A model generated the notes under the pieces. It searched no databases and was not told the origin of the DNA. It worked only from the letters and a program-made list of their open reading frames with translations. Positions 7,743 to 55,561 of a stretch of 64,000 nt of DNA are shown here, in pieces. Both the position numbers and the translations under genes were made by a program. The stretch comes from Bdellovibrionota bacterium (GTDB taxonomy: Bacteria; Bdellovibrionota_C; UBA2361; JBIKUX01). Each line of letters starts with the position of its first letter. Position 1 is the first letter of the stretch. The stretch is from NCBI GenBank assembly GCA_044347345.1, contig JBIKUX010000006.1, positions 1 through 64,000 of the forward strand, written 5' to 3'.

Positions 7743-10109
7743 CTATAGCAGTTCTAGTACACCTTTGATACGACGAGCCAAAACTACTGGAGAAAGACGT
7801 TTTGAAAGAAGACTAGATGCCCCATTGTTCAGACAATCAAGCTCATTATCAATATCATCATCAATCGTTAACATTATAACTGGAATATCTCGGGTAACTT
7901 TGTGTTTTTTAATTCGTCCCAAAAATTCTTTACCTGTCATTTCAGGCATGGACATATCACACAAAATTAAATCAGGACCATATTCCACAGCTTTATTAAA
8001 ACCCTCTGCACCATTTTCTGCCTCAATTATTTCTATAAAGTCCTTTCCGAGAAGCGCAGATACCATTTTACGAACACTTTCACTATCATCCACAAGCAAT
8101 ACGGCCTTTTTTTTGCCCTTAGCTTCTTTTTTCATCTCTGGAATTACTACTGACTCTACCGTAAGCTTTTCTGCTACAACCGCAGATACTGTAAACCTTT
8201 CTGATTCCGTACGTTCAACCGAAATATCACTAAAATTTCCGTCTATTGGCGCCATAGATATACTCTTTGTAGGGATGACTATTTCTCTTCCATCCAAGGG
8301 TCGGCGTAGATTATACTTTTGACCTAAAGAACCCTCTCCACCTAAGACAACATTAACTCCGCTAAACACTCGACTAGAGGATGCTCCTTCTCCATCCTTA
8401 CCGCGCTGAAGTGAATCTAGTTCAAGATAGGGTAGTAATTCGTCAATTGTTGTTTTCCCCTCACATAAATGATCAATCCCTGCCTCCTCGATTGTTCTGT
8501 AGCCGTTATCTCTTGCTACAGCCAATAATTGCTCGTGAGACGCTCCAAGAGCTATCATCTCTGCTACATCATCGATAACATGTAGGTAGCTATACAAACC
8601 TAACCTTCCCTTGTATCCAGTAAATGAACATCTCTCGCAACCAGCTCCCTTTTGAAAATTTGGAGATTCAACTTTATGATCTTTTATAATATTGTGTAAC
8701 TTCTCAATATCTGCCGCTGGTAGTGGCTCAGAACAAAACTCGCAGATCCTTCGAACCAAACGTTGTGCAATAATTCCTATTAAAGCCTGGGAAAAAACAG
8801 TCGGATCACCACCAAGTTGAGATAATCTAGTTACAGCTGACAAAGCATCGTTTGTATGAACTGTAGATAAAACCAAGTGACCAGTTTGTGCTGCCTGAAG
8901 CGTAGTTTTTAGAGTATCCTCATCGCGTATCTCTCCCACCATAATCACATCGGGATCTTGTCTCAAGATGGATCTTAGGGCAGAGGCGAATGTTACTCCT
9001 GCTGTATTATTAACTTGAATCTGATTTATTCCCTTAAACCGATACTCAACGGGGTCTTCAATAGTTGTAATGTTATGCCTCCCGTCATTTAAATGATTGA
9101 GTGCTACATATAGGGTAGTAGTCTTTCCAGAACCAGTTGGGCCAGTAACCAGAAACATCTTACCCTTTTTTGTTAGACCCTCGCGAAATCTCTTCTCAAC
9201 TTGGCTAGGCAATCCTAACTTACTTAAGTCACTACTTAATATTGCACCTCCAAGTACTCGAAGAACCAATTTTTCACCGTAAGACGTCGGAACACTCGAT
9301 ACACGAAGGTCAATATCTTTCTTTGCAATAAGAACACGCATACGGCCATCTTGAGGTTTGCGCCGTTCTGATAAATTCATTCTTGCTAGAACTTTAATAC
9401 GAGAAACAACATGAGATTGTAGCTTTTGGGGAATAGCAATTATATCTTGTAAGATTCCATCAATTCGGAATCGTACAAGCATGCTCTTTTGACCAGGCTC
9501 CATATGAATATCACTGGCTCCAAGATTCACCGCATCTACAAGAATCTTATTAGCCAACCTTATAATAGGCGGTTCTACAGAGGATTGATCCTTAAAATTA
9601 TCACCCTCCGAATTGATAGATACCAGCTCAATAACTTCCTCAGTCTCGTCAACCTTTAATGGATCAAATTCCTGCTGAGATAGATACTTTGTTAAAAGTC
9701 TAAGAATCTTCGTTTCTTCCGCTATAACGACTTTTATTTGTCGACCCAAAATAAACTCAAGGCTCTTTATATTTTCTATTTCACATGGATTAGCAGTTGC
9801 TACTAGTACTGAAGCTCCGTCATGAAAAAGCGGTATCAGTCGATTATTCCAACAAATTGAGCGCATAGCTGGACTTACAAAGTCTTTACATTGCAATTTA
9901 CTTATTGTTTCACTTGAATCAAGATCAACATATGCAGTATTTGTAGTTTTTGCTACAGCATCAATTGCTGCTTTCTCCGAAACTAAGCCTGCCTTTACAA
10001 GCAACCTTATTGGGCCTTCATTGTTGCTTGAATCGGGAATACTCTCTGGCTCAGAAGCTAAAAGTCCGTTTTCAATTAAAATTTTTGTAACCAGTCTTAT
10101 CCCTTTCAT
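7743..10109 (-). CDS. pilB: PilB/GspE-family assembly ATPase with C-terminal receiver domain
   Basis: ASDIH, GPTGSGKTT, TIEDPVEY, RQDPDVIMVGEIRD, two CxxC zinc motifs, and a C-terminal REC (VDD..CD..MP..T..K). Confidence 0.9.
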   Translation of the reverse strand: MKGIRLVTKILIENGLLASEPESIPDSSNNEGPIRLLVKAGLVSEKAAIDAVAKTTNTAYVDLDSSETISKLQCKDFVSPAMRSICWNNRLIPLFHDGASVLVATANPCEIENIKSLEFILGRQIKVVIAEETKILRLLTKYLSQQEFDPLKVDETEEVIELVSINSEGDNFKDQSSVEPPIIRLANKILVDAVNLGASDIHMEPGQKSMLVRFRIDGILQDIIAIPQKLQSHVVSRIKVLARMNLSERRKPQDGRMRVLIAKKDIDLRVSSVPTSYGEKLVLRVLGGAILSSDLSKLGLPSQVEKRFREGLTKKGKMFLVTGPTGSGKTTTLYVALNHLNDGRHNITTIEDPVEYRFKGINQIQVNNTAGVTFASALRSILRQDPDVIMVGEIRDEDTLKTTLQAAQTGHLVLSTVHTNDALSAVTRLSQLGGDPTVFSQALIGIIAQRLVRRICEFCSEPLPAADIEKLHNIIKDHKVESPNFQKGAGCERCSFTGYKGRLGLYSYLHVIDDVAEMIALGASHEQLLAVARDNGYRTIEEAGIDHLCEGKTTIDELLPYLELDSLQRGKDGEGASSSRVFSGVNVVLGGEGSLGQKYNLRRPLDGREIVIPTKSISMAPIDGNFSDISVERTESERFTVSAVVAEKLTVESVVIPEMKKEAKGKKKAVLLVDDSESVRKMVSALLGKDFIEIIEAENGAEGFNKAVEYGPDLILCDMSMPEMTGKEFLGRIKKHKVTRDIPVIMLTIDDDIDNELDCLNNGASSLLSKRLSPVVLARRIKGVLELL

Positions 10110-11486: not shown

Positions 11487-14414
11487 CTACTGTGTAGAAA
11501 TTTCATGATTACTGCGGATCCAAGGAATTTGCTCCGGCTTTTGGGCAGTAAAAGAGTTTAGAGGAAGTGCTGTAAAGCTTGCTACACCAGAATTACCAAA
11601 ACCATTACGGCTATTTCCAAAAATTGAAGGGGAGCTCAAAGCTGAATGAGAAAAAAGAAGACGTAAACGAGATCCACCTGCAGTTACAACAAACGGTGAA
11701 TAAGCGAGACCAACTGATCCAAGTCTTATCATCCCTACTTGAATAACGTGATTACCACCAATTCTAACATCATTTTCAGACAACTCTCCAAACGGAGCAT
11801 TAAGATCAAACAAAGGCGCAGCTATACCTTGCTGTACAGCAGTAGTTATATTTGTTGCACCATCTGGTAAGGCTCCATTCACGAAAATTCCTGCCTCTGG
11901 TTTACTTGAATCAATTAGTACACCAGCTCCAGAGCGAGCATCAAAAGGTAATAAAAAGGCTTCAAGCTCGGCACCAACACATCGGTTATCTGGAGGAGCA
12001 ATTACAGTGGGCATCAATATGGCTCCTCCAACGTTTAAAGCTTCATCAATAACAAATCCAGCAGGATTATAATAACCATTTAAGACTTGGGATGTTAGAG
12101 CCAATGGGATTATGAAGCCAGAAGCAGTTTGAGGAATTTGAAATACCTTTGCTCCTCTTGCTGATTTTCTAAGAGAACCAGAAATATTACCAAGCTGCTG
12201 ATTTACCAACTGACTTCTTTGAACACCACTTCGAGTAGATTGATAATTATCAATACCCGTATTAAGCGGATCGAGAATACCCACTATTTCTTGTGAAAAC
12301 TGTTGCATAGTGCGTACATCACCGGCACTACGCCAACGACCAGTACCCCAATATACTCCTATAGCTAGAGGTGGTATAGTTTGTGTGTCTTCAGGATTAT
12401 AATTTGGATTTTCAACTAACACCGCTACTGGCCGAGTTGAAATAGGATGGTTTGCATCACCAGCAAAGAGACGAGAGACTGTCCAAGCTGTTGGGTATCC
12501 AACAGTATGAATACGAAAAACATCTCCAGCTTCGTCAGCCAAGTAAAGTCTATCGGTGTCGGGATTGATATCACTTTGAACTGCACGAACCCCACTTGTA
12601 CGAGTTCCTACAGGAGCGGTTCGGCTTACTGGAATAATTATAGGAGATGAAGATAACGAATTTAGATTAAATACAGCCAAAGATGTCCCTGATGCTGAAC
12701 CAGATGCACCACTACCGACCACCATCCACCACTGATATCTTGATGGAGATTCGGATGGATTACCGGTTACTACTAATTCGGGATGAGTTGAACTATCTCC
12801 TAAACCAACTGGAATAATAACTTCACCCAAGAGAGTAGGTAGTACTCTATTAGTAATATCAAGAACAACGTATGCCCTCTCACTCTCACCTAAACCAAAA
12901 AAAGCAATAGTACGCCAACTGCCACCAATAAACGCATCTCTCACAGTTATTTGACCGTCAACAAAAGAACGACGAAAGTTTGTGTTGTAATCAACACGTG
13001 CAAGACGCTCAAGGTGAGGAACGACCGTACTTGGAATATAACCCCATACTTCATTGCCATTCTGAGCATCAAAAGCGTGAAGTATCCCGTCATTTCCGCC
13101 AATCAGTGCCAATAATCTCGTATTATTTTGGCTTTGCACAAACTCACGGTAACCAACAAGGTTATCAAATTGATTCATTCCACCAGTGGTGGCAATAACC
13201 GGCTTTGATGATACAAAGTCACCGAAATCATTATTGCCACCATTTCCGTCTCTATCTCTTATACGAAGCCCGCTTTGAGGCATACCATTAGTAAAATTTA
13301 TTAATAGTTGAGCAGCCGTAACATTTCTACTCTGAAGGGGTGCAGCAAGAGATGAGATAGGTTCTTGTGAGGGAAATCTCGAAAATAATCGTGTAGCAAA
13401 GAGAGACGCATTATATATAGAAAATGGCGCCGCTTGGGTTGTTATCCCATCTCCATCGGGATCATGGCCAGCAATAAGTGCTCTAGGTGACCTAGTAAGA
13501 TTACGCTTATAATAAACCTCTACTACATTAATAGTATGCTGTTGCAAACCATTACTACTAAATCGGTATAGGTCAAGGTTGCCTGTCCAAAAATCTGCAC
13601 GAAAACGGGGTCTAACAATAATATTTTGATTATCCAGTCTAACTGGAGCAGAAATTCCAGCACCAGCTAGTTCGCTAACAATAATTTGATTTCCATTTGA
13701 ACATGCACCCACTGGTTTAGTAATAAAAGGTATGCGAATCCCTAAAGTGGGTGTTGCAGTTGGAGTAGGACTCGGTGTTGGAGTTGCAGTCGGCCGGGGA
13801 GTTGGAGTCAACGTCGGTCTCGGCCTTAGAGTTGGAGTTGCAGTCGGCCGGGGAGTTGGAGTCAACGTCGGTCTCGGCCTTAGAGTTGCAGTTGCAGTCG
13901 GCCGAGGAGTTGGAGTCAACGTCGGTCTCGGCACTAGAGTTGCAGTTACAGTTGCAGTTGCAGTCGGCCGAGGAGTTGGAGTCAACGTCGGTCTCGGCAC
14001 TAGAGTTGCAGTTACAGTTGCAGTCGGTCGGGGAGTTGGAGTCAACGTCGGTCTCGGCACTAGAGTTGCAGTTGCAGTCGGTCGGAGAGTTGGAGTCAAC
14101 GTCGGTCTCGGCACTAGAGTTGCAGTTGCAGTTGCAGTTGCAGTCGGTCGGGGAGTTGGAGTTGAGCTTTGAACTGGCGTGGGCTGCCGAGTGGGGAAAG
14201 GGAAAAAAGTAGGAAAGACGGGCGTTCTTACTCTTGGAGGCCGAGTAGAGGTAGGTGGTCTTATGCCAGAACCGACAGAAGGATAAACTGGAATAGAAGT
14301 ACTATTAGGTGGTACTTGAGCAAAAGCAGACGCTATGAATACTAACTCAATCAGTACTAGTCCTAAAAAATAATAGTAACATATAGTTAAAACTTGATAA
14401 GTCCTAAAATTCAT
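11487..14414 (-). CDS. pilY1: PilY1/PilC-like pilus tip protein with Pro/Thr/Arg repeat stalk
   Basis: Signal peptide (AFA-Q), [23 protein letters not shown] and VDG PilC beta-propeller motifs; last gene of a minor-pilin cluster. Confidence 0.85.
13745..14165 (-). repeat. coding tandem repeat, about 6 x RPTAT(AT)[12 protein letters not shown]
   Basis: Six near-identical GAGTTGGAGTCAACGTCGGTCTCGGC cores with 54-66-bp spacing, varying by GTTGCA hexamers. Confidence 0.95.
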
Positions 14415-21091: not shown

Positions 21092-22633
21092 CTATGCCAA
21101 AGAGGAAGCAATCCATTCATCAAAAGAGGGTAATTGATATTTAGAGGCTAACTTTTCGTCGATTGCATGCTCAACGGCCTCTGAGAAGCGTGTTGGAGAT
21201 ATGAGAGGCTTTAATTTTATCAAAGCTCTTAACACCTCTTGAGTGATAGATTCAATTATTTCTCTTCCAACTTTTTCTCGTAATGTAGCAATCTGTTTCT
21301 TTCGTTCGATCAAATATAGCGCTTCGTTACTCATTGTATTAGCAGAGGCAACCTTTGGCCTCCTACTAGTACTAGAAGCTAATCTTGCTGGTTTTTTTTC
21401 AATAATACTAGATATTTTAGAAGTAGGGCGCTCTTTAATTATTCTATCAGATGGCAGTCGAAATGTCTGAGCTCTCTCTACAGCCCGATACAAAAATCCG
21501 ATAGGAGATCGGATAACTCCTGCATCTCCTTGGGCAAGTAATTGGTCAAAATGATCAATAATATGACTAATTCTCTCTAAACTTTTATCATCTTTATGTT
21601 CTATTAAACGTAATGCCTGCCCTTCACTTATTCCCCGTTGTGTAAGTTTAATGAGAATTTGTTGAAAAAACGTTTTTTCTGTTTTAACAGGTTCTAATAT
21701 ACTCCTAGGCTTGCCTTCTGATGCTAAGTCTAATTCTGTGCTTACTACGGCGCTTGAATTAATCTTAGGATGTTGTAATAAAGACTTTTTGCCATTTGCA
21801 GCATAAATAGTTACCACTGTTGTATGTCCTCTTCCTTCATAGTTTATTTTTTCAATAAACTTTTGGGATATTAGTTCATCAAATGCAGGATCAAGTTGTT
21901 GTTTTAAAGAGCTGGCATACTTATAGTTTCTGGAAACTCCAATTTTTTCATGTGCTAAGGTAAAGAGATTTATAGAAACGGTAGATTTGTACCAAAAATG
22001 TTTATCAAGATAACGATATAAGCGCTTACTTACGGCAGACTGAAGAGTTAAATAAAAATCTAAATCAAGTTTCTTAATAAACCCAACTTGGAATGAATTG
22101 AACATCACTTCACTCCATTCAAAAAAACTTGATTTTAAATCACCATCGCGACCAGCGCTTATTTCGTAAGAATCTATTAGTCCAAAGTTTTTAGTTGAAT
22201 GATTTTTTATTTCATTATCAAAAAATGCATTAGTAGCTTTGATACGAACACCACTTAAGCGGTCAAGGGCTTTTTGTAATCTTAAATAACTTCGACCTTC
22301 TGTGCTCCATCGCAAAATTTTTAACAATTCATATCGAGTAAAATAAACCTTTCTCCGACGCATACCGTCGTCAACACTTAACTTGAGTAATCCGAGTAGT
22401 ACCTCATCATCAGATGAAGTAGGTAATCCAAATTTATCTGCACCAGTAATTATCCATTGTCTTTCAACTAATTGGCCATTTTTGCCTTTAATCGAATCAT
22501 TAAATTCTAATGTTTTTATTGGACTGGATATTCGCGTCGACAAGACCGTCAAAGGAAATTCAGCAAGGTTCATCTCATCTCGTGAGACTAAAATAGCTGA
22601 ATTTTTTTCAATATTCTGTTTCCGACGGGGCAT
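21092..22633 (-). CDS. repA: plasmid-type replication initiator protein A (RPA-like family)
   Basis: DEMNLAEFP, GLPT..DEVL, FTRYELLKILRW..GRSY and RLYRYLDK are motifs I recognise from RPA-family initiators. The gene is divergent from parAB across a repeat-rich spacer. Confidence 0.8.
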   Translation of the reverse strand: MPRRKQNIEKNSAILVSRDEMNLAEFPLTVLSTRISSPIKTLEFNDSIKGKNGQLVERQWIITGADKFGLPTSSDDEVLLGLLKLSVDDGMRRRKVYFTRYELLKILRWSTEGRSYLRLQKALDRLSGVRIKATNAFFDNEIKNHSTKNFGLIDSYEISAGRDGDLKSSFFEWSEVMFNSFQVGFIKKLDLDFYLTLQSAVSKRLYRYLDKHFWYKSTVSINLFTLAHEKIGVSRNYKYASSLKQQLDPAFDELISQKFIEKINYEGRGHTTVVTIYAANGKKSLLQHPKINSSAVVSTELDLASEGKPRSILEPVKTEKTFFQQILIKLTQRGISEGQALRLIEHKDDKSLERISHIIDHFDQLLAQGDAGVIRSPIGFLYRAVERAQTFRLPSDRIIKERPTSKISSIIEKKPARLASSTSRRPKVASANTMSNEALYLIERKKQIATLREKVGREIIESITQEVLRALIKLKPLISPTRFSEAVEHAIDEKLASKYQLPSFDEWIASSLA

Positions 22634-22778
22634 AGTTTTTTAAATTTAACTTCATCATTAACTACATTATTAGTCATACGTTCTTTGTTGACGTTATACA
22701 ATGTATTAGTTTAATACTTAGTTTTAAGTGAGCGCACTTTTTAATGAATAAAATTAAGATGTTAAGCTCTAAAATTTC

Positions 22779-23122
22779 TTTCATTACACGAATAATTTAT
22801 CCTCAATTCACGATAAAACAGGTTTCATTACACGATAAAATTTTCGTCATTACACAATATTAGTTCCCCCAATGCACGGTGCTAATCACTTAGTAGTCGT
22901 GTCTTGAAATAAATAGCTCAGTTTTTAGCGTTTTTTGTATCGGGTAATCAAATAAAGAAATGTTTTTATAGCAGCAGACAAGTATATAAAGACCATATTG
23001 TTTGCGTTAAGTTAATACTCGTGAAATGAAGTAAAAAAATCTCACACTTTATGCCACCTATACGTTAACTTCTGTCGTAGATCTGCGTTGGATATGTTAT
23101 TACTTATTTCCGTACACGATAA
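22779..23122. promoter_or_regulatory. iteron-like array; putative replication origin
   Basis: TCATTACACGAT-like direct repeats at 22781, 22803, 22825, 22847 and 22869 (22-bp period). Inverted copies lie at 22894-22907, 22937-22950 and 23016-23029, with a further direct copy at 23109. Confidence 0.8.
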
Positions 23123-23152
23123 TGTGTTCGCGGAAGATAGAAAGGTTTGGTA

Positions 23153-23953
23153 ATGGCTAGAATCATCGGAGTTGTAAATCAAAAAGGCGGGGTCGGGAAA
23201 ACGACTACTACCAGTAATTTGGCAGCCGCTCTTGCTGATAGAGGTAAGCGTATTTTAGTGCTTGATATTGACCCTCAAGCTAATTGCACTACCCATTTGG
23301 GAGTTTCATCAGGAGAGGAACTAGGTGAGCTTGAGAGTAGTGTCGGAGCCCAAATAGAGGAGCAAAAGCGCACAATCTATAATGTGTTAAAGGGGCAATG
23401 TGATATAGCTTCAGCTCGGGTGCATAGGTCTCAAAATTTAGATATTGTTCCTTCTAGTTTACTTTTAAGCGCTGCAGACCTTGAGCTAGGTGGTGTAGTT
23501 GGTAGGGAATTATTGTTACGTCGAGCTCTTACTGCAGTGGCTGATGAGTACGACTTTATTTTAGTAGACTGTCCTCCAGCTCTCGGATTGTTATCTCTTA
23601 ACGCTCTAGCAGCTGTAAATGAGGTTATTGTTCCCGTTCAAAGTGAATATTTAGCTCTGCACGGTGTAAGGCAGCTTTTAGATACCATTGACCAAGTTAA
23701 AGCGATTTACAATCCTTCTTTAAAAGTTGGTGGAGTTCTTATTTGCTTACACGATAACAGAAGAAAGCTTGCTCGTGAGGTTGCTGATATTATCAGAGCC
23801 TACTTTGGTGATCTAGTTTTTACTACTGTTATAAGGTCAAATGTGTCACTCGCTGAAGCTCCATCAGAGGGAAAGAGTATATTTGAGTATTCTCCGAAGT
23901 CTTCAGGTGCCGATGATTACCGTTCTCTTGCACAGGAGGTAGATAATGGCTAA
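23153..23953 (+). CDS. parA: ParA/Soj ATPase
   Basis: NQKGGVGKTT, DIDPQAN, DCPPALG; the ATG at 23153 is the likely start. Confidence 0.95.
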   Translation: MARIIGVVNQKGGVGKTTTTSNLAAALADRGKRILVLDIDPQANCTTHLGVSSGEELGELESSVGAQIEEQKRTIYNVLKGQCDIASARVHRSQNLDIVPSSLLLSAADLELGGVVGRELLLRRALTAVADEYDFILVDCPPALGLLSLNALAAVNEVIVPVQSEYLALHGVRQLLDTIDQVKAIYNPSLKVGGVLICLHDNRRKLAREVADIIRAYFGDLVFTTVIRSNVSLAEAPSEGKSIFEYSPKSSGADDYRSLAQEVDNG

Positions 23954-24809
23954 GAAAAGACTTTCTCTAGTTGGAAATCCCCTCTTATCTGGACCTTCAT
24001 TACTTGATAGAGAGCATATTGGAGTGCCTTATCGTGAAATTCAGATTTCTCAGATACAACGAGATCCTAACCAACCTAGGCAATTATTTGACGAAGAGCG
24101 ATTGAAAGAGTTAGCTGCGTCAATTGCTACTTACGGTGTACTCAGCCCAATTTTAGTGCGAGCAACCGAGAGCCCGGGTATTTTTCGCTTAATTGCTGGA
24201 GAACGTCGTCTTCGAGCTGCTGGAATGGCAGGTCTTTCTGCTATACCTGCTTTGGTTGATCAAAGCGATGAAAGTAGTGGTGAACGTACTCTAGCAATGC
24301 AGCTTGTTGAGAATATTCAGCGAGCAGATCTTTCCCCACTTGAGCGTGCTCATGCAATAGGTGCGTTAAGAGACTCCTTCAATCTTTCAGTGAGAGAGGT
24401 TGCTGAAAAGCTCGGTATTTCAAAAAGTATGGTTCAACGGAGTTTAGATATCTTATCTCTACCTGATGACCTCTTAAATGCATTAAGAGACGGAGCCCCT
24501 GAATCTAAAATTTTACTACTTGCTAAAATTGAGGACGAGGAGATCAGGGCAAGCTATCTGAAGGATATTGATCTTTTAACCCGTAGCCAGCTACAAAAAG
24601 ACCTTGAAAAAGAAAAAGCTCAACTTGAAAGGCAGTCTTTTGTTTCACCTGAGGATAGAAGAATAGCAGATGAAATGCAGCGGAGTATCGGTTTAAAAGT
24701 GAGATTGCAAAGAACAAATCCGGAATCAGTTAGTGGTAGATTGGTAATAGATTTTTATTCTGACACTGATCTACAACTCTTATTTCGTCGGCTAGTAGGA
24801 GATGAATAA
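23946..24809 (+). CDS. parB: ParB/Spo0J-family partition protein
   Basis: PNQPR, LIAGERRLRA CTPase motif, ENIQR, HTH SVREVAEKLGISKSMVQRSL. Confidence 0.95.
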   Translation: MAKKRLSLVGNPLLSGPSLLDREHIGVPYREIQISQIQRDPNQPRQLFDEERLKELAASIATYGVLSPILVRATESPGIFRLIAGERRLRAAGMAGLSAIPALVDQSDESSGERTLAMQLVENIQRADLSPLERAHAIGALRDSFNLSVREVAEKLGISKSMVQRSLDILSLPDDLLNALRDGAPESKILLLAKIEDEEIRASYLKDIDLLTRSQLQKDLEKEKAQLERQSFVSPEDRRIADEMQRSIGLKVRLQRTNPESVSGRLVIDFYSDTDLQLLFRRLVGDE

Positions 24810-26244
24810 TTATAATAAGAAAAATGTCCCTCGGTGGGACGGCGATAGTAGCCGGTTAAGCATTCCTTTGGCTGTGTCCCACCGTGGGACAGAGTCGCAG
24901 GGTAGTAGTAGTTGTAGTGGTAGTGGATTGGAAAATGTTGGTAGCGGTAGAGCTTATCTCCAGACTCTTGCCCAATGGAGAGGAGATGCTAATTTTTCCC
25001 TAGAAAATATTAAGAAAGTCCTGCATAAGCTCGGAAATCCACAAGATGCCGTTCCAGTAATTCATGTCGCTGGAACTAACGGTAAAGGTTCTGTATCTGC
25101 TTTTTGTGCAGGGATTTTAGGAGCAGCCGGAAAAAAAGTTGGACTAACTATATCGCCCCATTTATCTGATTTAACTGAGCGGATAATTATCAATGGTTTG
25201 CCGATAAGCGAGTCAGTTCTGGATGAACTAACTCCTCATCTAAGAGTAGCAATTGAATCTGCTGATGTACGTTTAAGTTTCCATGAAGGGATAACGGCAC
25301 TAGCTTTTTTGGCCTTTCGAGAGTTAGGTCTAGATTATGGTGTAGTAGAGGTAGGATTAGGTGGTCGCTTAGATTCAACTAATGTCATTACACGACCAGA
25401 AGTTGCGATTATTACATCGATTGGATTCGATCATTGTCATATTCTTGGTAATACTTTAGCTGAGATAGCTAGGGAAAAAGCTGGAATAATAAAGGTAAAC
25501 TCGGTGACAGTTGTAGGAGAACTTTTAGATGAGGCTCTGAAACAGATAGTAAATATTGCCATGTCGAAACGTTCGCAACTCTTTATTTTTGATCGTGATT
25601 TTTATGCGAAAACACGTGATGATCAAGTTGAGATAGTATTATCAGATGAAGAAAGATTAACTACTAAATTGGCCTTACAGGGGGTACATCAACAGAAAAA
25701 TGCGGCTGTAGCGGCCTACGCTACACATACTATCGGTATTGATAAGCAATCAATTTCCTTAGGATTGTCTCGAGTATTTTGGCCAGGTCGATTTGAAGAG
25801 GTAGAGTTACCTAATGGCCGTATTATTCTGGACTGTGCTCATAATCCAAATGGGATTGATACCTTTATTGCGACTCTTAATTTAACTCAGCATGTTATTC
25901 CCAATGCTATTGGTTTTGGTTGTTTAGATACTAAAGACTGGAGAGGAATGATTGATAGATTGGTAGCGTATGCTCCGAGTGCTGAATGGCTTATTGGTGA
26001 GCCTGAATCTTCTCAATCAGTGAGTAGTGAAATAATTGAAGAATATTTATCGGGTTTTGGTATAAGAGCTACTTCTTTCAAAGCACGATATCAAGATTTA
26101 GCTTCTGCTCTTTGTGCAGCGGCTTCACGACAATCACAACGGGTGGGCAATAATAATAAGGGACTAGCGGTTCTCGCCGGATCGATCTATCTCCTAGGTA
26201 AGGTGCGTCCTTACTTCGTCTCGTATAATCGCTTGATTTGGTAA
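24802..26244 (+). CDS. folC: folylpolyglutamate synthase/dihydrofolate synthase
   Basis: IHVAGTNGKGS, EVGLGGRLDSTN, WPGRFE, LDCAHNP. The true start may be about 40 codons downstream of the ORF start. Confidence 0.93.
   Translation: MNNYNKKNVPRWDGDSSRLSIPLAVSHRGTESQGSSSCSGSGLENVGSGRAYLQTLAQWRGDANFSLENIKKVLHKLGNPQDAVPVIHVAGTNGKGSVSAFCAGILGAAGKKVGLTISPHLSDLTERIIINGLPISESVLDELTPHLRVAIESADVRLSFHEGITALAFLAFRELGLDYGVVEVGLGGRLDSTNVITRPEVAIITSIGFDHCHILGNTLAEIAREKAGIIKVNSVTVVGELLDEALKQIVNIAMSKRSQLFIFDRDFYAKTRDDQVEIVLSDEERLTTKLALQGVHQQKNAAVAAYATHTIGIDKQSISLGLSRVFWPGRFEEVELPNGRIILDCAHNPNGIDTFIATLNLTQHVIPNAIGFGCLDTKDWRGMIDRLVAYAPSAEWLIGEPESSQSVSSEIIEEYLSGFGIRATSFKARYQDLASALCAAASRQSQRVGNNNKGLAVLAGSIYLLGKVRPYFVSYNRLIW
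24825..24891. promoter_or_regulatory. two parS-like palindromes
   Basis: TGTCCCTCGGTGGGACG (24825-24841) and the perfect TGTCCCAC-C-GTGGGACA (24875-24891), directly after parB. Confidence 0.7.
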
Positions 26245-30127: not shown

Positions 30128-31741
30128 TTAATAAGCTCTGGCAAATATCGCCCTCACTCTGGCAGGACGACCTGTAAGAACGCATGAACCTAACTCGCCA
30201 TCTTTATAAAAAGTGTCTCCTTCAATAGGGATACACCGCACAGAGACTTTAAGTGGCGCAAGTAATTCTTCAGTCTCAGCCGCTTCACTCCACGGAGCTA
30301 CTATAAAGCCAGAGGAAGAAGAAGCATTTGCAGTGCCTGCTAATCCAATGTCATTTTCAGCCTCCTCCTTTCCTGCTTCAAAGTAATGCTGAAAATCTTT
30401 AAATGTTGCTACGGATGACTCTGTCCGAGATTTTAAAATATCAAACGCTTGAGATCTGTAAGTATCTTGAATTTCTTGTAAAATATCAGCAGCCTGAGAT
30501 AGGAATTGGGTTCTGTCAATGATTAGCTTATCTTTTGGTTCTTTATCTCTCCGATACAAAACTATATTGCCACTGGCTACATCTCGAGGGCCTACTTCCA
30601 CTCGAAGGGGTATCCCTTTTTTAATCCATTGCCAGTTTTTTTCACCACCGCGAATATCACGGTCATCTACAGTAACTCTCAAAGTCTCACCCCAACAAGT
30701 TACGTTTTCTAGCGAATTTTTAAGATCAGTACAAAATTTTATTACAGAGTTCGCGCTATCTGACTTTGGTATAACTGGAAGAATAACTATATGCTTAGGC
30801 GAAATTCGAGGAGGAAGGCGCACTCCGTTATCGTCTCCATGCACCATTAACATACCCCCAATTAAACGAGTAGAAACGCCCCATGAGGTGGTAAAAGCAT
30901 GCATACGCACGCCTGTTTCATTTAAAAACATTATATTGCAAGCTTTGGCAAAATTCTGACCGAGATAATGAGAAGTCCCAGCCTGAAGTGCCTTGCCATC
31001 TTGCATCATCGCTTCAATGGTAAAGGAATTCTCTGCCCCTGGAAAACGTTCGAATTTAGGTTTTTCACCTCTAATGCATGGGATAGCCATACAGTCGTTG
31101 ACAAAATCATAATAAATTTTGTGCATTAGCTTAGTCTCAGCTAATGCTTCCTCAGCAGTAGCATGTACAGTGTGGCCTTCTTGCCACAAAAATTCGGAAG
31201 TTCTGAGGAATAAACGAGTTCGCATTTCCCATCGGACTACATTTGCCCATTGGTTAATTAATAACGGAAGATCACGATAAGATTGAACCCATCTAGAGAA
31301 AGCGTCACCGATAATTGTCTCAGAAGTTGGTCTCACAACTAAAGGTTCTTCAAGTTGGCCTGCTGGTACTAATTTGCCATCTTTACTCTCAAGACGATGA
31401 TGGGTAACAACGGCACATTCCTTGGCAAATCCTTCGATGTGAGCAGCTTCCTTTTCAAGAAAACTAAGCGGAATAAAAAGCGGAAAATAAGCATTTTCAT
31501 GTCCAGTAGATTTGATTTTTTCATCAAGAAATCGCTGAACACGTTCCCAAATTCCGTAGCCCCACGGCTTTATAATCATGCATCCACGCACCGGAGAGTG
31601 CTCTGCTAGTGAACCAGCTTTTATAATAGCCTGATACCACTCAGGAAAGTTTTCCGCACGCGTGGGTGTTATTGCTGTTGATGATGATGATGATGTTGTT
31701 GTTGCTGTTGTCTCGTCACTCATAAGTGGATAAAAAGTCAA
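30128..31741 (-). CDS. proS: prolyl-tRNA synthetase (eukaryote/archaea-like type)
   Basis: VRPTSET, QWANVVRWEMRTRLFLRTSEFLWQEGHT, LQAGTSH, C-terminal FARAY. Confidence 0.97.
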   Translation of the reverse strand: MTFYPLMSDETTATTTSSSSSTAITPTRAENFPEWYQAIIKAGSLAEHSPVRGCMIIKPWGYGIWERVQRFLDEKIKSTGHENAYFPLFIPLSFLEKEAAHIEGFAKECAVVTHHRLESKDGKLVPAGQLEEPLVVRPTSETIIGDAFSRWVQSYRDLPLLINQWANVVRWEMRTRLFLRTSEFLWQEGHTVHATAEEALAETKLMHKIYYDFVNDCMAIPCIRGEKPKFERFPGAENSFTIEAMMQDGKALQAGTSHYLGQNFAKACNIMFLNETGVRMHAFTTSWGVSTRLIGGMLMVHGDDNGVRLPPRISPKHIVILPVIPKSDSANSVIKFCTDLKNSLENVTCWGETLRVTVDDRDIRGGEKNWQWIKKGIPLRVEVGPRDVASGNIVLYRRDKEPKDKLIIDRTQFLSQAADILQEIQDTYRSQAFDILKSRTESSVATFKDFQHYFEAGKEEAENDIGLAGTANASSSSGFIVAPWSEAAETEELLAPLKVSVRCIPIEGDTFYKDGELGSCVLTGRPARVRAIFARAY

Positions 31742-38270: not shown

Positions 38271-40169
38271 GTGCACAGGAGTCTAATTCCAATACTAGTT
38301 ATTGCAATGGTGGCAAGTATGCTTGTGCCGCTGCCATCCTTTGTGATTGATTTATTACTTACAGCCAATCTTGTCAGTACGATTATTCTTTTATTGGCAA
38401 CGTTCTTTATTACTGAGCCATTGAAGCTTTCAGCCTTTCCCTCATTATTACTTTTGATGGCATTAGCAAGATTGTCGCTGAATATAGCCACTACTCGAAT
38501 GATCTTAAGTAAGGGGGAGGCGGGGTCAGCAATTGAAGCCTTCGGTTCAATTGTAATTTCTGAAAATCTAATTGTTGGATTTGTAACGTTTTCAATTATT
38601 ACTCTAGTGCAGCTAATAGTCGTAGCAAAAGGTGCTGAACGAGTAGCTGAAGTTTCTGCAAGATTTGCTCTTGATGCTCTTCCAGGAAAGCAAATGTCGA
38701 TCGATGCTGATTTGCGCACAGGATTAATCTCAATTGATGATGCAAGGAAGCGAAGAGACGAACTTCAGGCAGAATCCCGTTTATATGGTGCACTTGATGG
38801 TGCAATGAAGTTTATTAAAGGTGATGCAGTAGCGGGACTTCTTATAACTCTGGTAAATATTATTGGTGGTATCATTACAGGTGTTTGTGTTAGAGGACTA
38901 TCTTTTTCTGACGCTATAGATGCTTATATTTTACTTAGTGTCGGTGATGGCCTCTTATCGCAAATTCCAGCCCTTCTTAATGCGCTTGCCGCCGGAATTA
39001 TTGTTACGAGAGTTGTAAATGGTACAGACTCATCATTGGCGTTAGACCTTCCAAAACAATTAGGCTCTCTCTCCTTTGCGGCACCAGTAGCAACATTTTT
39101 ATCTCTAATTTTGAGCTTACTCGTGGGTCCAATCAGTATTTTTGTAGCAGTAGCTGCATGTGTATTAGCCATTATTCAAGCTCGTAAACGTATTAAGGAT
39201 AAACATCGCTCAGCAAAAAATCACAGAAAAGATGATTTTCATAGGTTGGTAAGACGTTTACCACCAGTAATTTCTATTGAACTATTAAATCTAAATGATT
39301 TATCTCCTGAGATTATAAATGAAGCGATGGAAAGTGTGAGATCTGAGTTTTGGCATCAAACTGGATTATGTTTTGACCTTCCAATCGTAAAGTTTTCAGG
39401 AATCGTAGATAACTCCAGAAGTTGTATGCGTATTTTTATTCATGGAGAGCAAGTTTTTCAATCTGAGATTGATAATCGGATCAATCACGCAGATGGTCTT
39501 CTGAAATTAATAAGTGATTACGTCCGCACAACTATGGTGAATGTTCTCCCAGATCTAATAACTGATTCGGTTGTTCGTCGATATATTGAGACATGTGAGC
39601 GAGAGGGATGTGAGCTAGGTTCATCAATTATACCTAATGTAATATCAATAACTCAAGTTACTGAATTGATAAGGTCTCTTGTTTCCGAAAGAGTACCACT
39701 AAGAAGTGGTAGACTTTTTCTTCAAGCTTTGGCTGAATCAGTTCCAAGATGTGGTTCTGGACGCATGCTAGTTGAAGAAATACGGATTGCGCTTCGTCGC
39801 TCTGTATTAGCACCATTCGGTATTCCTGGTTCTATTATTTCGTGTCGTGCTCTTCCTCCCTTGGCTGATTATTTAATTAGTAAAGCAGAGCGAGCGCAGT
39901 CAGCAGAAGACGCTGAGCTTCATCTTGCTATCGCAGAAGCCTGTAGCAATTGGGATCTTGATTTACCAATAATTGTCGGCCGTGGCGCTAGAAAAAGAGT
40001 GCGTGAAACCTTGTTAATGAGGAAAATTGATGTCCCAGTGCTCGCTTACGAAGAAGTATGTGATTACGAACTCGATATAGTACAGCTTGTTGATATACCT
40101 GAGCATCTGTTTGGCCTTCCTCAGATAAGTAATTCAAGTAGTAAAAATATCCAGGATCAAACAGTTTAG
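38271..40169 (+). CDS. sctV: SctV/FlhA (FHIPEP family) export gate
   Basis: FPSLLL..RLSLNIATTR, KGAERVAEVSARFALDALPGKQMSIDADL, LYGALDGAMKFIKGDA, GDGL. Confidence 0.93.
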   Translation: MHRSLIPILVIAMVASMLVPLPSFVIDLLLTANLVSTIILLLATFFITEPLKLSAFPSLLLLMALARLSLNIATTRMILSKGEAGSAIEAFGSIVISENLIVGFVTFSIITLVQLIVVAKGAERVAEVSARFALDALPGKQMSIDADLRTGLISIDDARKRRDELQAESRLYGALDGAMKFIKGDAVAGLLITLVNIIGGIITGVCVRGLSFSDAIDAYILLSVGDGLLSQIPALLNALAAGIIVTRVVNGTDSSLALDLPKQLGSLSFAAPVATFLSLILSLLVGPISIFVAVAACVLAIIQARKRIKDKHRSAKNHRKDDFHRLVRRLPPVISIELLNLNDLSPEIINEAMESVRSEFWHQTGLCFDLPIVKFSGIVDNSRSCMRIFIHGEQVFQSEIDNRINHADGLLKLISDYVRTTMVNVLPDLITDSVVRRYIETCEREGCELGSSIIPNVISITQVTELIRSLVSERVPLRSGRLFLQALAESVPRCGSGRMLVEEIRIALRRSVLAPFGIPGSIISCRALPPLADYLISKAERAQSAEDAELHLAIAEACSNWDLDLPIIVGRGARKRVRETLLMRKIDVPVLAYEEVCDYELDIVQLVDIPEHLFGLPQISNSSSKNIQDQTV

Positions 40170-52327: not shown

Positions 52328-55300
52328 CTAGCTGTACTTTTGATCTGGATTGTCGTTATGGTTTCCAGCATCCTCTGGGAATGTAATATCAATTTCATTT
52401 GTAATCTTTTTACAAGAATTGTCGACAGAGGAGCTACCATCGAGAGACGAACTAACGAGAGATGCGCTAAATTGTAGCTCGTAGAGACGTTTGTACTCGC
52501 CGTCTTTATCCATTAATTCGTCATGTGTTCCTATTTCAACTACTACTCCATCTTTTAAAACAAAAATTCTATTGGCTGAGCGGATTGTTGAGAGACGATG
52601 AGCTATCACAAGAGTTGTTCTGCCCTTTTCAAGAACCTCTAAGGCTTTTTGAACCTCACGTTCGGAACTATTATCAAGAGATGCTGTTGCTTCATCTAGT
52701 ATCAGAATCGGAGATTTACTAATTAAAGCTCGTGCTATAGCGATTCTTTGTCTCTCGCCGCCTGATAAGGTCATTCCACTTTCACCAATAATTGTAAAGA
52801 AACCTAGAGGAAGCTGCTTTATAAATTGATAAGCATAAGCAAGTCGGGCAGCATTCTCTACGTCCTCGAGGGTCGCATCTCTTCTGCCATATCTTATGTT
52901 TTCAAAGATAGAATCCTGAAACAAAAATGTGTGCTGGCTTACCATAGCTATTCTCGAGCGAAGCTCAGAGAGAGAAAGTTTTCTTATATCAATTCCTCCA
53001 AGAAGCAATCGACCCTGAGTTGGATCGATAAAGCGCGGGATTAGATCGACAAGTGTTGATTTCCCTGATCCAGATAGACCAACAAGTGCAATTTTTTCTC
53101 CCTCTTCGATGGACATTGTGACATTGGTAAGGGCTCCTCGGGAGGAAGAACGACTATATGAGAAAGAGATATTTTCAAAAGAAATGCAGTTTGTTTTCGG
53201 CATGGAAACTGGATTTTCTGGTGAAGCTATAGTTACTTGAGCATCGAGCACTTCGAAAATACGATGACTGCCCGCTATGCCTTGTTGTAGTGCACCTGTA
53301 ACTCGACTAAGCTTTTTAAAGGGATCGTACATTAAAAAGACTGCTAGTAAAAAAGCTATAAAGTCACCCTGCGTTCTGCTGCCGGAGATAACTGTAGTAC
53401 CTCCATAGAAGATAATTGTACCAATTGCTATACTAGCTAGCACTTCGTTAATTGGTCCTACAAGAGCTCTAACTTTTTCTGACCGAATTAAGGTTCGAGT
53501 AAGAGAGGAGTTAGCTTGCCGAAAACGTGATTGTTCGTAGTCTTCTGCTGTGAATAATTTTACTATTTTATTGCCGTGAATAGCTTCGCTAAAAAGAGAG
53601 GACAGAGATCCTATAGCTTCCTGACCTTTTCTTGACAGCCTTCTCATCTTCTTTCCAAATGAACTGACTGGAATAATGCCAAGAGGGAATACAATCACTG
53701 CAATAAAAGCGAGAAATGGATCGAGAAAGAAAGCAGCAAAAGTGAGAGCAATTATTCTAACAATATCTCGAAGAATTGCTGATGTAGAATCCGTTAGAAG
53801 CGTGCGCACTAATTGAACATCTGCAGTAGCTCTAGCCAATAAGTCGCCACTGGATTTATCAGAAAAAAAACTCGGACTTAGTAATAATAATTTTTGGTGT
53901 AGTTTGTTTCTAAGGTCTTCAACGACTCGGTGCCCTACTGAATTTTGTAGATATTGTTGGCCAAAATCAACGAAGGCTCGAAAAAAACTAATGCTTACCA
54001 AAATAATTGGAAAAATTAGTAAAACATCTCTTTGTCCATTTGTTAAAACCTTATCTAAAGCAAATTTAACAATAAACGGAACCGCTCCATCTGTTGCCCC
54101 GTAGCATACCATACATAATATAGCTAAAATAAATCTGCGCTTGTGTGGTCTTAACAGTTCTAATAAGCGACGGTTCTCAGTGATTAACGGTGGTTTCGTG
54201 GCGGCAAGTTTTAGCGCAGTTTTAGCTACTCGAAGGGCTGCATCCTCTTTTGACTCATTAGAGGTTTCATTAGCTGAGAGATATGAAAGAAGATTTTCGC
54301 TTTTATCCCTTTCATCGTAGCTAGATAATTGTTTGCGGATTAGAGCTAAATTATCTTCGATCTGCTTTCGGTAAGCATTATCTGTAAGTAATCTGTCTAC
54401 TTCATCTGCAACATTACTGACCGTAAAATCATCTTGTAGAAGTTCTCGAATAGTATTTGGTATAAGTATGTTTACTATGGAGAATTGCTTAAGTGGAGAG
54501 AGTTTTCTTATGATTGTTGCTGAAATTGGATGAACTGCATAGACCATCGCAAAAGGAAGGCCCGCATAGGCGGCTTCAAGGTTGCATGTACCTGACTTTA
54601 AAATACCGATATCGCTACCGAACAAAACCGTTTTTGTATCTCCTTGCCAAACTATACACCAGTCTAAATGAGGACGAATTAATTCGTAGGTACCGGCGAT
54701 TAAGTGGGAAGGAATGGGTATCACTGCTGTAATTGGTTTACCTCTTTTTCTGGCTTCTAAGAGGCCGTTAATTAATATTGGTAAATTCGCGGTAACTTCC
54801 TGAGAACGGCTACCAGGGAAAATTGATACAACATTGTCGGATGAGGGGATTGCTAAAGTGCGCCGAAGTTCTGAGCTAATTTTTGTTCGCGTAGATGCTA
54901 CGTCATTAGGAAACTTATCCTTAAAAGGGTGCCCTACATAAGAAGTTCGGTAAAACCCATGTTTTGCTAAAAATTCCTTTTCAAAAGGAAATATAGTAGC
55001 TACATGATGAACGTAGCGGTCGAGAGCACGGACTCGGCTTGGACGAGAAGCCCATAACTTTGGCGGTACATAATATAATACCGGTATTTTTAAATCTCGA
55101 GCTTTTTTTGCAACACGCAGATTAAAAGTTGGAAAATCAATCAAAATAATTACATCTGGTCGCCATGTTCGTAGAGTTTTTGTAATCGTAGAGAACGCCG
55201 TAAGAAGTTGTTTACCAGAGCGGATTACTTCAATAATCCCCATCACCGCACCAGCAGATTCTGAATCAACTACTATATTAATTCCTTGAGCCTTTGAATA

Positions 55301-55561
55301 GCGTCCTCCCATTCCTTTTATTTCGGCGTGCGGCACTAGGCTAAAAATAGCTTGGGCTAACTCTGCTGCTCTTTGGTCTCCTGAAACCTCTCCGGCAATA
55401 ATAAATATCTTAGGTCGGTCACACGCTGAATCTACTGTTTTAGCTAATACAGAATTTTCATCGACAGCTAATCCATCTTTAGCTAAAGGGATTGCGTTAT
55501 TTGTTACACCTGTCTTTGATGTTACTGAGTTTGTCATGCTGATATTTGGCATAAATTTCAA
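52328..55561 (-). CDS. LpxB (lipid-A-disaccharide synthase)-MsbA (lipid A flippase) fusion
   Basis: N-part AGEVSGD, IDFPTFN, VGHP, PGSRSQE, SGT; C-part ABC TM domain plus GLSGSGKST, LSGGERQR, DEATASLD. Confidence 0.9.
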   Translation of the reverse strand: MKFMPNISMTNSVTSKTGVTNNAIPLAKDGLAVDENSVLAKTVDSACDRPKIFIIAGEVSGDQRAAELAQAIFSLVPHAEIKGMGGRYSKAQGINIVVDSESAGAVMGIIEVIRSGKQLLTAFSTITKTLRTWRPDVIILIDFPTFNLRVAKKARDLKIPVLYYVPPKLWASRPSRVRALDRYVHHVATIFPFEKEFLAKHGFYRTSYVGHPFKDKFPNDVASTRTKISSELRRTLAIPSSDNVVSIFPGSRSQEVTANLPILINGLLEARKRGKPITAVIPIPSHLIAGTYELIRPHLDWCIVWQGDTKTVLFGSDIGILKSGTCNLEAAYAGLPFAMVYAVHPISATIIRKLSPLKQFSIVNILIPNTIRELLQDDFTVSNVADEVDRLLTDNAYRKQIEDNLALIRKQLSSYDERDKSENLLSYLSANETSNESKEDAALRVAKTALKLAATKPPLITENRRLLELLRPHKRRFILAILCMVCYGATDGAVPFIVKFALDKVLTNGQRDVLLIFPIILVSISFFRAFVDFGQQYLQNSVGHRVVEDLRNKLHQKLLLLSPSFFSDKSSGDLLARATADVQLVRTLLTDSTSAILRDIVRIIALTFAAFFLDPFLAFIAVIVFPLGIIPVSSFGKKMRRLSRKGQEAIGSLSSLFSEAIHGNKIVKLFTAEDYEQSRFRQANSSLTRTLIRSEKVRALVGPINEVLASIAIGTIIFYGGTTVISGSRTQGDFIAFLLAVFLMYDPFKKLSRVTGALQQGIAGSHRIFEVLDAQVTIASPENPVSMPKTNCISFENISFSYSRSSSRGALTNVTMSIEEGEKIALVGLSGSGKSTLVDLIPRFIDPTQGRLLLGGIDIRKLSLSELRSRIAMVSQHTFLFQDSIFENIRYGRRDATLEDVENAARLAYAYQFIKQLPLGFFTIIGESGMTLSGGERQRIAIARALISKSPILILDEATASLDNSSEREVQKALEVLEKGRTTLVIAHRLSTIRSANRIFVLKDGVVVEIGTHDELMDKDGEYKRLYELQFSASLVSSSLDGSSSVDNSCKKITNEIDITFPEDAGNHNDNPDQKYS

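Follow-up and report, generated by a model that had tools for sequence, protein, structure and literature searches.

We describe here a plasmid-type replication and partition module that lies among core genes in a 64,000-nt stretch of DNA (the window) from contig C7 (JBIKUX010000006.1, 109 kb) of the genome G000 (GCA_044347345.1, 2.53 Mb in all). Throughout, G numbers denote genomes of the lineage, with G000 as the source genome, and C numbers denote contigs; the relatives are labelled as metagenome-assembled genomes of Bdellovibrionota, Oligoflexia or Deltaproteobacteria. The module spans 21.09-24.89 kb and consists of repA, an array of iterons, the gene pair parA2 and parB2, which diverges from repA, and two palindromic sites, parS2, that follow parB2. 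A preliminary description of the sequence had taken it for a domesticated plasmid origin on a replicon that carries core genes, either a chromid or a main chromosome that no longer depends on DnaA for initiation.

A predicted iteron-type initiator

The repA gene (21092..22633, minus strand) encodes a replication initiator of 513 residues with matches to the Pfam families RPA and Rep3_N. Over residues 18-239 it scores 70.6 bits against RPA (PF10134; E = 1.9e-19), which exceeds the gathering cut-off of 27 and makes it a member of that family, and its match to Rep3_N is weak (6.4e-5). Because the Pfam scan gives these two families alone, RepA is not an RctB protein by sequence. None of the models in an NCBIfam scan fits it, and a search of its profile against the sequences of solved structures returned one match at chance level (E = 0.057). 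An alignment of 28 orthologues contains many invariant columns, mostly in the N-terminal half, and an AlphaFold2 model built on these orthologues (mean pLDDT 74, with residues 40-280 mostly between 70 and 96) has winged-helix domains at about 40-135 and 175-278, a disordered linker, and conserved helical domains at 322-398 and 436-512. When this model was compared with known structures using Foldseek, domains 2-3 of RctB ranked first (5ubf, 8e-7), followed by pi with iteron DNA (2nra, 5.8e-4) and many entries for RepE54. As modelled, then, RepA is an iteron-type initiator with two winged-helix domains. The RPA-family initiator divergent from parAB that had been described earlier is thus present, both in its Pfam score and in the positions of the reading frames, and the worry that the protein might not be a Rep at all is answered by the family match together with the Rep-type predicted fold.

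The nearest plasmid-borne relatives of RepA in PLSDB are annotated as 'replication initiator protein A' and reside on plasmids of Isosphaeraceae/Planctomycetes, with 30-34% identity over residues 6-396; replicons of Deinococcus, Thermus and Rubrobacter come next. None of the 287 PLSDB records reaches 60% identity to RepA, and one of the 287 covers 80% of the query. As a separate observation, some relatives have additional RepA paralogues on other contigs (G030:C429, G039:C78, G083:C21, G060:C245, G104:C33, G055:C15 and G053:C44), with 38-46% identity over the N-terminal half; they may represent plasmids with the same type of Rep that circulate in the lineage.

Phased iterons in the repA-parA gap

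The repA and parA2 genes are separated by 513 bp with an A+T content of 70%. Five direct repeats on the plus strand (22775..22885) occupy this gap in a 22-bp register, with starts at 22775, 22797, 22819, 22841 and 22863 and a core of TCAWTnCACGAT, so that the phased repeats claimed earlier for this position are real. They are accompanied by a weak inverted iteron-like site on the minus strand (22934..22956, two mismatches to the 11-mer) and by a single plus-strand iteron just before parA (23103..23125), which is a possible RepA operator or a possible coupling site to parAB. Adjoining the array is an AT-rich stretch (22634..22774) whose 30-bp windows are 67-83% A+T, and its position beside the iterons, as in iteron plasmids, makes it a candidate DNA-unwinding element. 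RepA would accordingly be expected, judging from these sequences, to recognise the iterons specifically and to open the origin. A promoter scan of the gap returned one site versus 3.1 expected by chance.

The array is both singular in the genome and widespread in the lineage. When clusters of at least three loose iteron sites within 150 bp were sought across the 2.53-Mb genome, the repA-parA gap was the sole location found. In 75 orthologous gaps, the iteron strand contains 464 copies of CACGA compared with 32 +/- 5 in shuffled sequences, and their spacings peak at 22, 44-45, 66-67, 88-89 and 110-111 bp. At least three phased sites are present in 57 of the 75 gaps and a single site in only 4, and in 23 of them the last CACGA lies 10-15 nt ahead of the inferred parA start. 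A cluster of DnaA boxes beside dnaA/dnaN, the arrangement of a DnaA-dependent oriC, is lacking at the module and is found instead on contig C57 at 66251-66885. A single DnaA-box-like sequence, TTATCCTCA at 22797 with one mismatch, occurs in the gap, and dnaA and dnaN are absent nearby; because this site falls in the iteron region, a helper role for DnaA at the module is possible.

A second, distinct ParABS system

Downstream of the iterons, parA2 (23147..23953, plus strand) encodes a Walker-type partition ATPase (AAA_31, 197.7 bits, 1.9e-58) and parB2 (23946..24809, plus strand) a centromere-binding protein with ParB_N and HTH_ParB domains (TIGR00180, 149.6 bits, 7.8e-44). The palindromes reported earlier to follow parB lie at 24826..24840 (copy a, GTCCCTCGGTGGGAC, one mismatch to the palindrome) and at 24876..24890 (copy b, GTCCCACCGTGGGAC, a perfect 7+1+7 palindrome), and they are the only matches to parS2 with at most one mismatch in the whole of G000. 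With a Walker ParA, a ParB that has N-terminal and helix-turn-helix domains and a palindromic parS nearby, the locus has the composition of a type I ParABS system. Conservation of the palindrome is high: among 67 orthologous regions downstream of parB it is perfect in 50 and has at most two mismatches in 61, whereas a control stretch inside parB yielded it in 0 of 66. Within 1.29 Mb of related loci there are 96 perfect sites, every one of them beside parB, and copies in relatives fall within 330 nt downstream of that gene. ParB2 and parS2 are a predicted pair of binding partners.

No canonical parS was found when it was sought in the module. That motif (TGTTCCACGTGGAACA) is located instead at C57:5478, beside ParB1 of a second parA/parB pair, whose products are 41% and 33% identical to those of parA2 and parB2, respectively. 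Canonical sites also lie beside ParB1 on the dnaA contigs of relatives, with five copies at 619.7-620.1 kb of G013:C2 and four in G040. Conversely, the whole 709-kb contig G013:C3 has two parS2 sites, at 689.6 and 690.7 kb, both beside parB2, and in G051:C2 parS2 is present only beside parB2. This distribution suggests two orthogonal ParABS sets, in which parS2 would serve ParB2 and canonical parS would serve ParB1. By motif comparison, parS2 looks like canonical parS with one extra central base and may thus be a derived centromere.

The longest open reading frame of the next gene, folC, starts at 24802 and has the palindromes in its first 90 nt. However, the alignment to the folC family model begins only at residue 67, and an in-frame TTG is available at 24928. 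It is therefore probable that folC starts later than 24802 and that the palindromes are intergenic, in which case the earlier statement that parB runs directly into folC holds for the longest reading frame but not for the likely gene.

Conservation across the lineage

Within the order, RepA was detected in 39 of 41 genomes, with both misses in assemblies that are 82-85% complete, and in 117 of 124 genomes of the lineage, including all 73 of high quality. In 80 related loci, where each gene was counted only if the flank was long enough, parA lies upstream of repA in 71 of 71 and parB follows in 66 of 66. The order continues with folC (50/62), an ispA-like gene (55/59) and suhB (30/56), and on the other side of repA are an SLT gene (21/53), flagellin genes (20/49) and trpS (6/44). 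Since RepA, parAB, the iteron core, the parS2 palindromes and the synteny are all conserved across the lineage, recent integration of a plasmid is ruled out, and the scenario in which the module would be absent from close relatives did not materialise. The module stretch was also detected in lake-water metagenomes from many studies, and one contig, assembled from a sample that is not marked as the source, covers 22005-24442 with zero differences. In two RNA libraries of one study, contigs span the flagellin genes well but overlap parts of parA, parB and repA only thinly. Although such contigs reveal neither strand nor level, and the parts that they leave uncovered are evidence of nothing, they give a weak hint of transcription.

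Two origins at two skew minima

The cumulative GC skew of both the window and contig C7 reaches its minimum at 22-23 kb, in the repA-parA gap. The module coincides with a skew minimum in all four genomes in which this was checked, namely at 22-23 kb of G000:C7, 690 kb of G013:C3, about 590 kb of G051:C2 and 350 kb of G006:C17. The G000 genome has a second locus with the features of an origin: contig C57 contains dnaA, the DnaA boxes at 66251-66885 (one of them perfect), a dnaN gene starting at 67012, and a cumulative skew minimum of its own at 66 kb. The earlier remark that dnaA/dnaN context is missing is therefore correct for the window but not for the genome. Likewise, the skew minimum at a dnaA-linked oriC elsewhere, which had been named as grounds for abandoning the proposal, does exist on C57, but the module has its own minimum as well.

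These results bear directly on the idea that the module is the sole or main chromosomal origin and that DnaA no longer initiates. Core genes adjoin the module, and in G013 the RepA-linked contigs may add up to more DNA than the dnaA contig (see below), as such a reading would have it. On the other hand, dnaA with a box cluster, dnaN and canonical parABS sits at its own skew minimum in G000, G013 and G051, and dnaA was found, intact, in 41 of 41 relatives searched. We consider a DnaA-independent main chromosome extremely unlikely, and this half of the preliminary description is not supported. Its other half, the chromid, fits a genome that has a dnaA origin and a second parABS on C57 with a separate minimum.

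Two relatives with large contigs are particularly instructive. G051 belongs to the same class, has 57% GC and is assembled in three contigs, with dnaA at 2067 kb of the 3,256,849-bp C1 and repA at 587 kb of the 1,866,914-bp C2. In 20-kb stretches sampled along both, the skew of C1 turns from positive to negative at about 445 kb and back at about 2060 kb, staying positive to the end, with a minimum at dnaA, a maximum near 480 kb and arms of 1585 and 1672 kb. That of C2 starts negative, becomes positive at about 590 kb and returns at about 1540 kb to negative values that last to the end, with a minimum at repA, a maximum near 1555 kb and arms of 965 and 902 kb. Both ends of each contig thus share a skew sign, and each maximum is roughly opposite the initiator. 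In G013, which has five contigs, the skew of the repA contig C3 (709 kb) falls for 650 kb from a maximum at 40 kb to the minimum at 690 kb at repA, interrupted by two short rises, and in the 1.25-Mb dnaA contig C2 the sign changes near 10 kb and again near 600-620 kb, with dnaA mid-way. The remaining three contigs of G013 have one skew sign each, apart from a negative dip in one of 18 samples, and their synteny with G000 contigs C26, C68, C45 and C50 suggests that they belong on the repA side. In that case the RepA replicon would be 1.39 Mb, compared with 1.25 Mb for the DnaA replicon. G013:C3 encodes ten tRNAs, including those for Gln, Glu and His.

Base composition is similar on the two sides, with a GC content in G000 of 0.393 for C7, 0.389 for the dnaA contig C57 and 0.39-0.41 for most contigs, and in the G051 samples of 0.54-0.58 for C2 and 0.56-0.58 for C1. 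A search for a dif-like motif common to the two terminus regions of G013 found none, and what they share is only an identical repeat of 1830 bp. This repeat is inverted between G013:C3 (about 66.7-68.5 kb) and G013:C2 (about 37.8-39.6 kb), some 30 kb from each skew maximum; it probably represents a mobile element and could be a place where the two replicons fuse.

A probable second chromosome

Taken together, we think it likely that the 21.09-24.89 kb module is the origin and partition locus (ori2) of a large, vertically inherited second replicon, a chromid or second chromosome, that exists beside a DnaA/oriC chromosome in an uncultured lineage of class rank. The more general claim of the preliminary description, a domesticated plasmid-type origin on a replicon with core genes, is supported by an intact module at a skew minimum, by its lineage-wide presence and by the genes around it: trpS, proS, folC, waaA and lpxB (the last as a fusion with msbA) each have one copy in G000, all on C7. 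Chromids, according to the criteria that Harrison et al. reportedly set out in 2010, combine plasmid-type replication and partition, chromosome-like composition and core genes with existence as a separate replicon beside the main chromosome. The first three of these four properties are found here. As for the fourth, physical separateness, dnaA and repA reside on different megabase-size contigs in G051 and G013, the skew equally fits one circle with two origins, and the synteny is mixed. To our knowledge, every well-studied replicon that combines a Rep, iterons, ParABS and core genes is a molecule of its own.

Several observations weigh against a separate second chromosome, and many of them are what one would predict from a single circular chromosome with two active origins (DnaA/oriC and RepA/iterons), each with its own ParABS, kept across the lineage. 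The skew suits such a circle just as well: in G000 two minima are seen together with at least one clear maximum, and if G051:C1 is joined to C2 in reverse complement the sign runs on without a break, with arms of 1504/1585 and 965/1070 kb. Core genes change sides between genomes: in G000 and G008 waaA shares a contig with repA, in G013 and G051 it shares one with dnaA, and bioB is 11 kb from ori2 in G000 but on G051:C1; trhO is on G051:C2. In G000, the 91.5-kb contig C32 has a terminus-like skew maximum at 65 kb that is flanked by blocks corresponding to G013:C3 570-584 kb and G013:C2 300-304 kb, that is, to the RepA side and the DnaA side of G013. This mixed contig could reflect a translocation, a chimeric assembly or a real junction in a single chromosome. 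Synteny chains in G013 also connect C4 with C2 near 1066 kb, and both C4 and C5 with the left end of C3. Among neighbouring synteny-block pairs of G000, 6 of 17 mix the G013 sets, a count that is perhaps too high, since sampling covered only 32% of G013:C2. Many of the best matches used to place contigs on replicons through G013 may moreover be paralogues, and the assignment of G000 contigs by this route was set aside as too noisy. The DnaA-box-like site inside the iterons belongs on this side of the balance too, and a search for overlapping contig ends in G013, G051 and G040 found none, a result that is uninformative on circularity.

The single circle has difficulties of its own. In none of the 38 genomes with both genes do dnaA and repA share a contig, an absence that is informative only for the contiguous long-read assemblies G013 and G051, and G051 would require exactly two assembly breaks to yield its two megabase-size contigs. 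The only stable natural two-origin bacterial chromosomes that we know of are rare fused Vibrio strains. We thus regard one circle with two active origins as unlikely, and find it slightly less probable still that two unrelated origins with their own centromeres would have remained stable on it across a class; on that reading, the shifts of core genes and the mixed C32 would be ordinary rearrangements within one chromosome.

The relative G040 provides a further point of comparison. Its assembly is a single contig of 2.28 Mb, 82% complete, with dnaA, parAB1 and the four canonical parS, in which RepA, ParB2, trpS, waaA, bioB and trhO were not found and nothing matched the ProRS of the proS_fam_I type. 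Among the four members of its family that were searched, three have RepA, in assemblies of 3.3-3.9 Mb. A separate circle left out of the assembly explains this more easily than a single chromosome does. Yet G040 was set aside as a clean case of a missing replicon, and is kept as weak support, because folC is present in a chromosome-1-like context and noisy 8-kb samples give skew arms of different length (about 910 and 1374 kb), the latter being another point against two replicons.

The clearest warning about skew comes from G006, a genome of 1.9 Mb and 31% GC. In its contig C17, at about 347.8-351.6 kb, repA, parA and parB are all broken by stops or frameshifts, folC is gone and parS2 is degenerate, while the nearby flagellin genes are intact; repA is intact in its congener G074. 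The skew minimum nevertheless persists exactly at the dead module, which counts against taking a minimum as a mark of a working ori2. Since it has outlasted the loss of repA and parAB, skew records past activity. The module can evidently be lost, presumably after fusion with the DnaA replicon. It may be asked whether the module is a relic of an anciently integrated plasmid whose origin is silent and whose genes are kept for, say, control of transcription or nucleoid organisation. G006 is in line with such a relic, as skew alone does not prove present activity. However, RepA, ParA, ParB, the core and phasing of the iterons and parS2 are strongly conserved at 43-59% RepA identity, and the skew minimum lies exactly at the module in distant relatives that range from 31 to 57% GC. 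A silent integrated origin, moreover, would not shape replichores of 650 and 960 kb, and the RNA-library contigs that overlap parts of repA and parAB point, if faintly, in the same direction. We judge a silent relic to be very unlikely.

If the module is indeed ori2 of a second chromosome, its mode of action can be sketched by analogy with known iteron initiators. RepA monomers would bind the five 22-bp-phased iterons through the two winged-helix domains, melt the neighbouring AT-rich DNA and bring in the host helicase, and replication would proceed bidirectionally. ParB2 would load on the two replicon-specific parS2 palindromes just 3' of parB, and ParA2 would segregate the replicon independently of ParAB1 and the canonical parS of the DnaA replicon.

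Coding context of the window

Family models were scanned against 30 of the window's open reading frames, and the lack of visible integrases and transposases noted earlier was thus checked in part. As described earlier, the module is surrounded by trpS, proS, an ispA-like gene, a tRNA-Pro gene and genes for lipid A, all of which are present. The lipid A genes include one minus-strand reading frame of 1077 residues (52328-55561) in which LpxB (TIGR00215, residues 50-414) is fused to MsbA (TIGR02203, 464-1032). The sole ProRS of G000 (30128-31741, minus strand) is of the proS_fam_I type (TIGR00408), as is that of G008 at 61% identity; G013, G018 and G006 match weakly, and the type of ProRS thus seems, from these sequence matches, to differ within the order. 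Elsewhere in the window, a 788-residue protein (7743-10109, minus strand) combines a PilB/GspE-type ATPase (33-558) with a C-terminal response-regulator receiver domain (about 668-785), and a 975-residue reading frame (11487-14414, minus strand) has no NCBIfam match, a local GC content of 0.43-0.44 and a locally reversed skew. An export gate of the SctV/FlhA family (38271-40169, plus strand) scores slightly higher with the type III secretion model than with FlhA and has paralogues on C45 and C63.

Relation to known replicons and significance

The closest parallel to the module in layout is chromosome 2 of Vibrio cholerae, with ori2, RctB and parAB2/parS2. RctB is the initiator of Vibrio chromosome 2, and the abstracts of PMC5397143 and PMC4846446 describe its role and that of crtS. 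In both systems the initiator lies opposite parAB across iterons, the parS is specific to the replicon and unlike the chromosomal one, and the replicon has core genes and is inherited throughout a lineage. RctB domains 2-3 are also the best structural match to the RepA model, with an identity of only 12-14%. RepA is nonetheless a member of the RPA family rather than an RctB, so that the likeness is structural only and is that of a model. The V. cholerae system further differs in its crtS site and 39-mer regulators, counterparts of which were not identified here. Conservation in the present lineage is class-wide as opposed to family- or order-wide, and the RepA replicon of G013 may be as large as the DnaA one.

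By Pfam family (PF10134), RepA belongs with the initiators of plasmids of Isosphaeraceae/Planctomycetes and of secondary replicons of Deinococcus and Thermus. Those proteins, however, are encoded on plasmids and megaplasmids of 25-670 kb in other phyla, and 23 of the 25 among the PLSDB matches listed end before the helical domain at 436-512 of RepA. With RepE of F, pi of R6K and TrfA of RK2, the module shares a predicted double winged-helix initiator and direct repeats phased at about 22 bp beside an AT-rich stretch. Unlike these proteins, RepA is about twice as long and has two extra helical domains, its sequence similarity to them is confined to the Rep3_N match (6.4e-5), and the replicon is of megabase size with core genes. 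Most likely, then, ori2 is a further case of the known RepA-iteron-ParABS secondary replicons, in a lineage for which none has been described. Our search of the literature on Bdellovibrionota for chromids, second chromosomes, multipartite genomes and megaplasmids found no report, and Bdellovibrio goes unmentioned in the main text of a 2026 survey of large extrachromosomal replicons (PMC13342612).

Because the genome is most likely split into two large chromosomes, ori2 would have been kept alongside the DnaA origin. Confirmation of two replicons would establish a multipartite genome in a lineage labelled Bdellovibrionota, where the literature that we found reports none. The split would also be unusually old and balanced, given that the module is class-wide and nearly universal and that the RepA replicon accounts for 36% of the G051 genome and perhaps 53% of that of G013. 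Metagenomic pipelines that equate one circular contig with one genome would then lose about a third of such genomes, and G040 is a possible example. For the biology of these bacteria, the lineage would offer a natural system for learning how a plasmid origin becomes the permanent partner of oriC.

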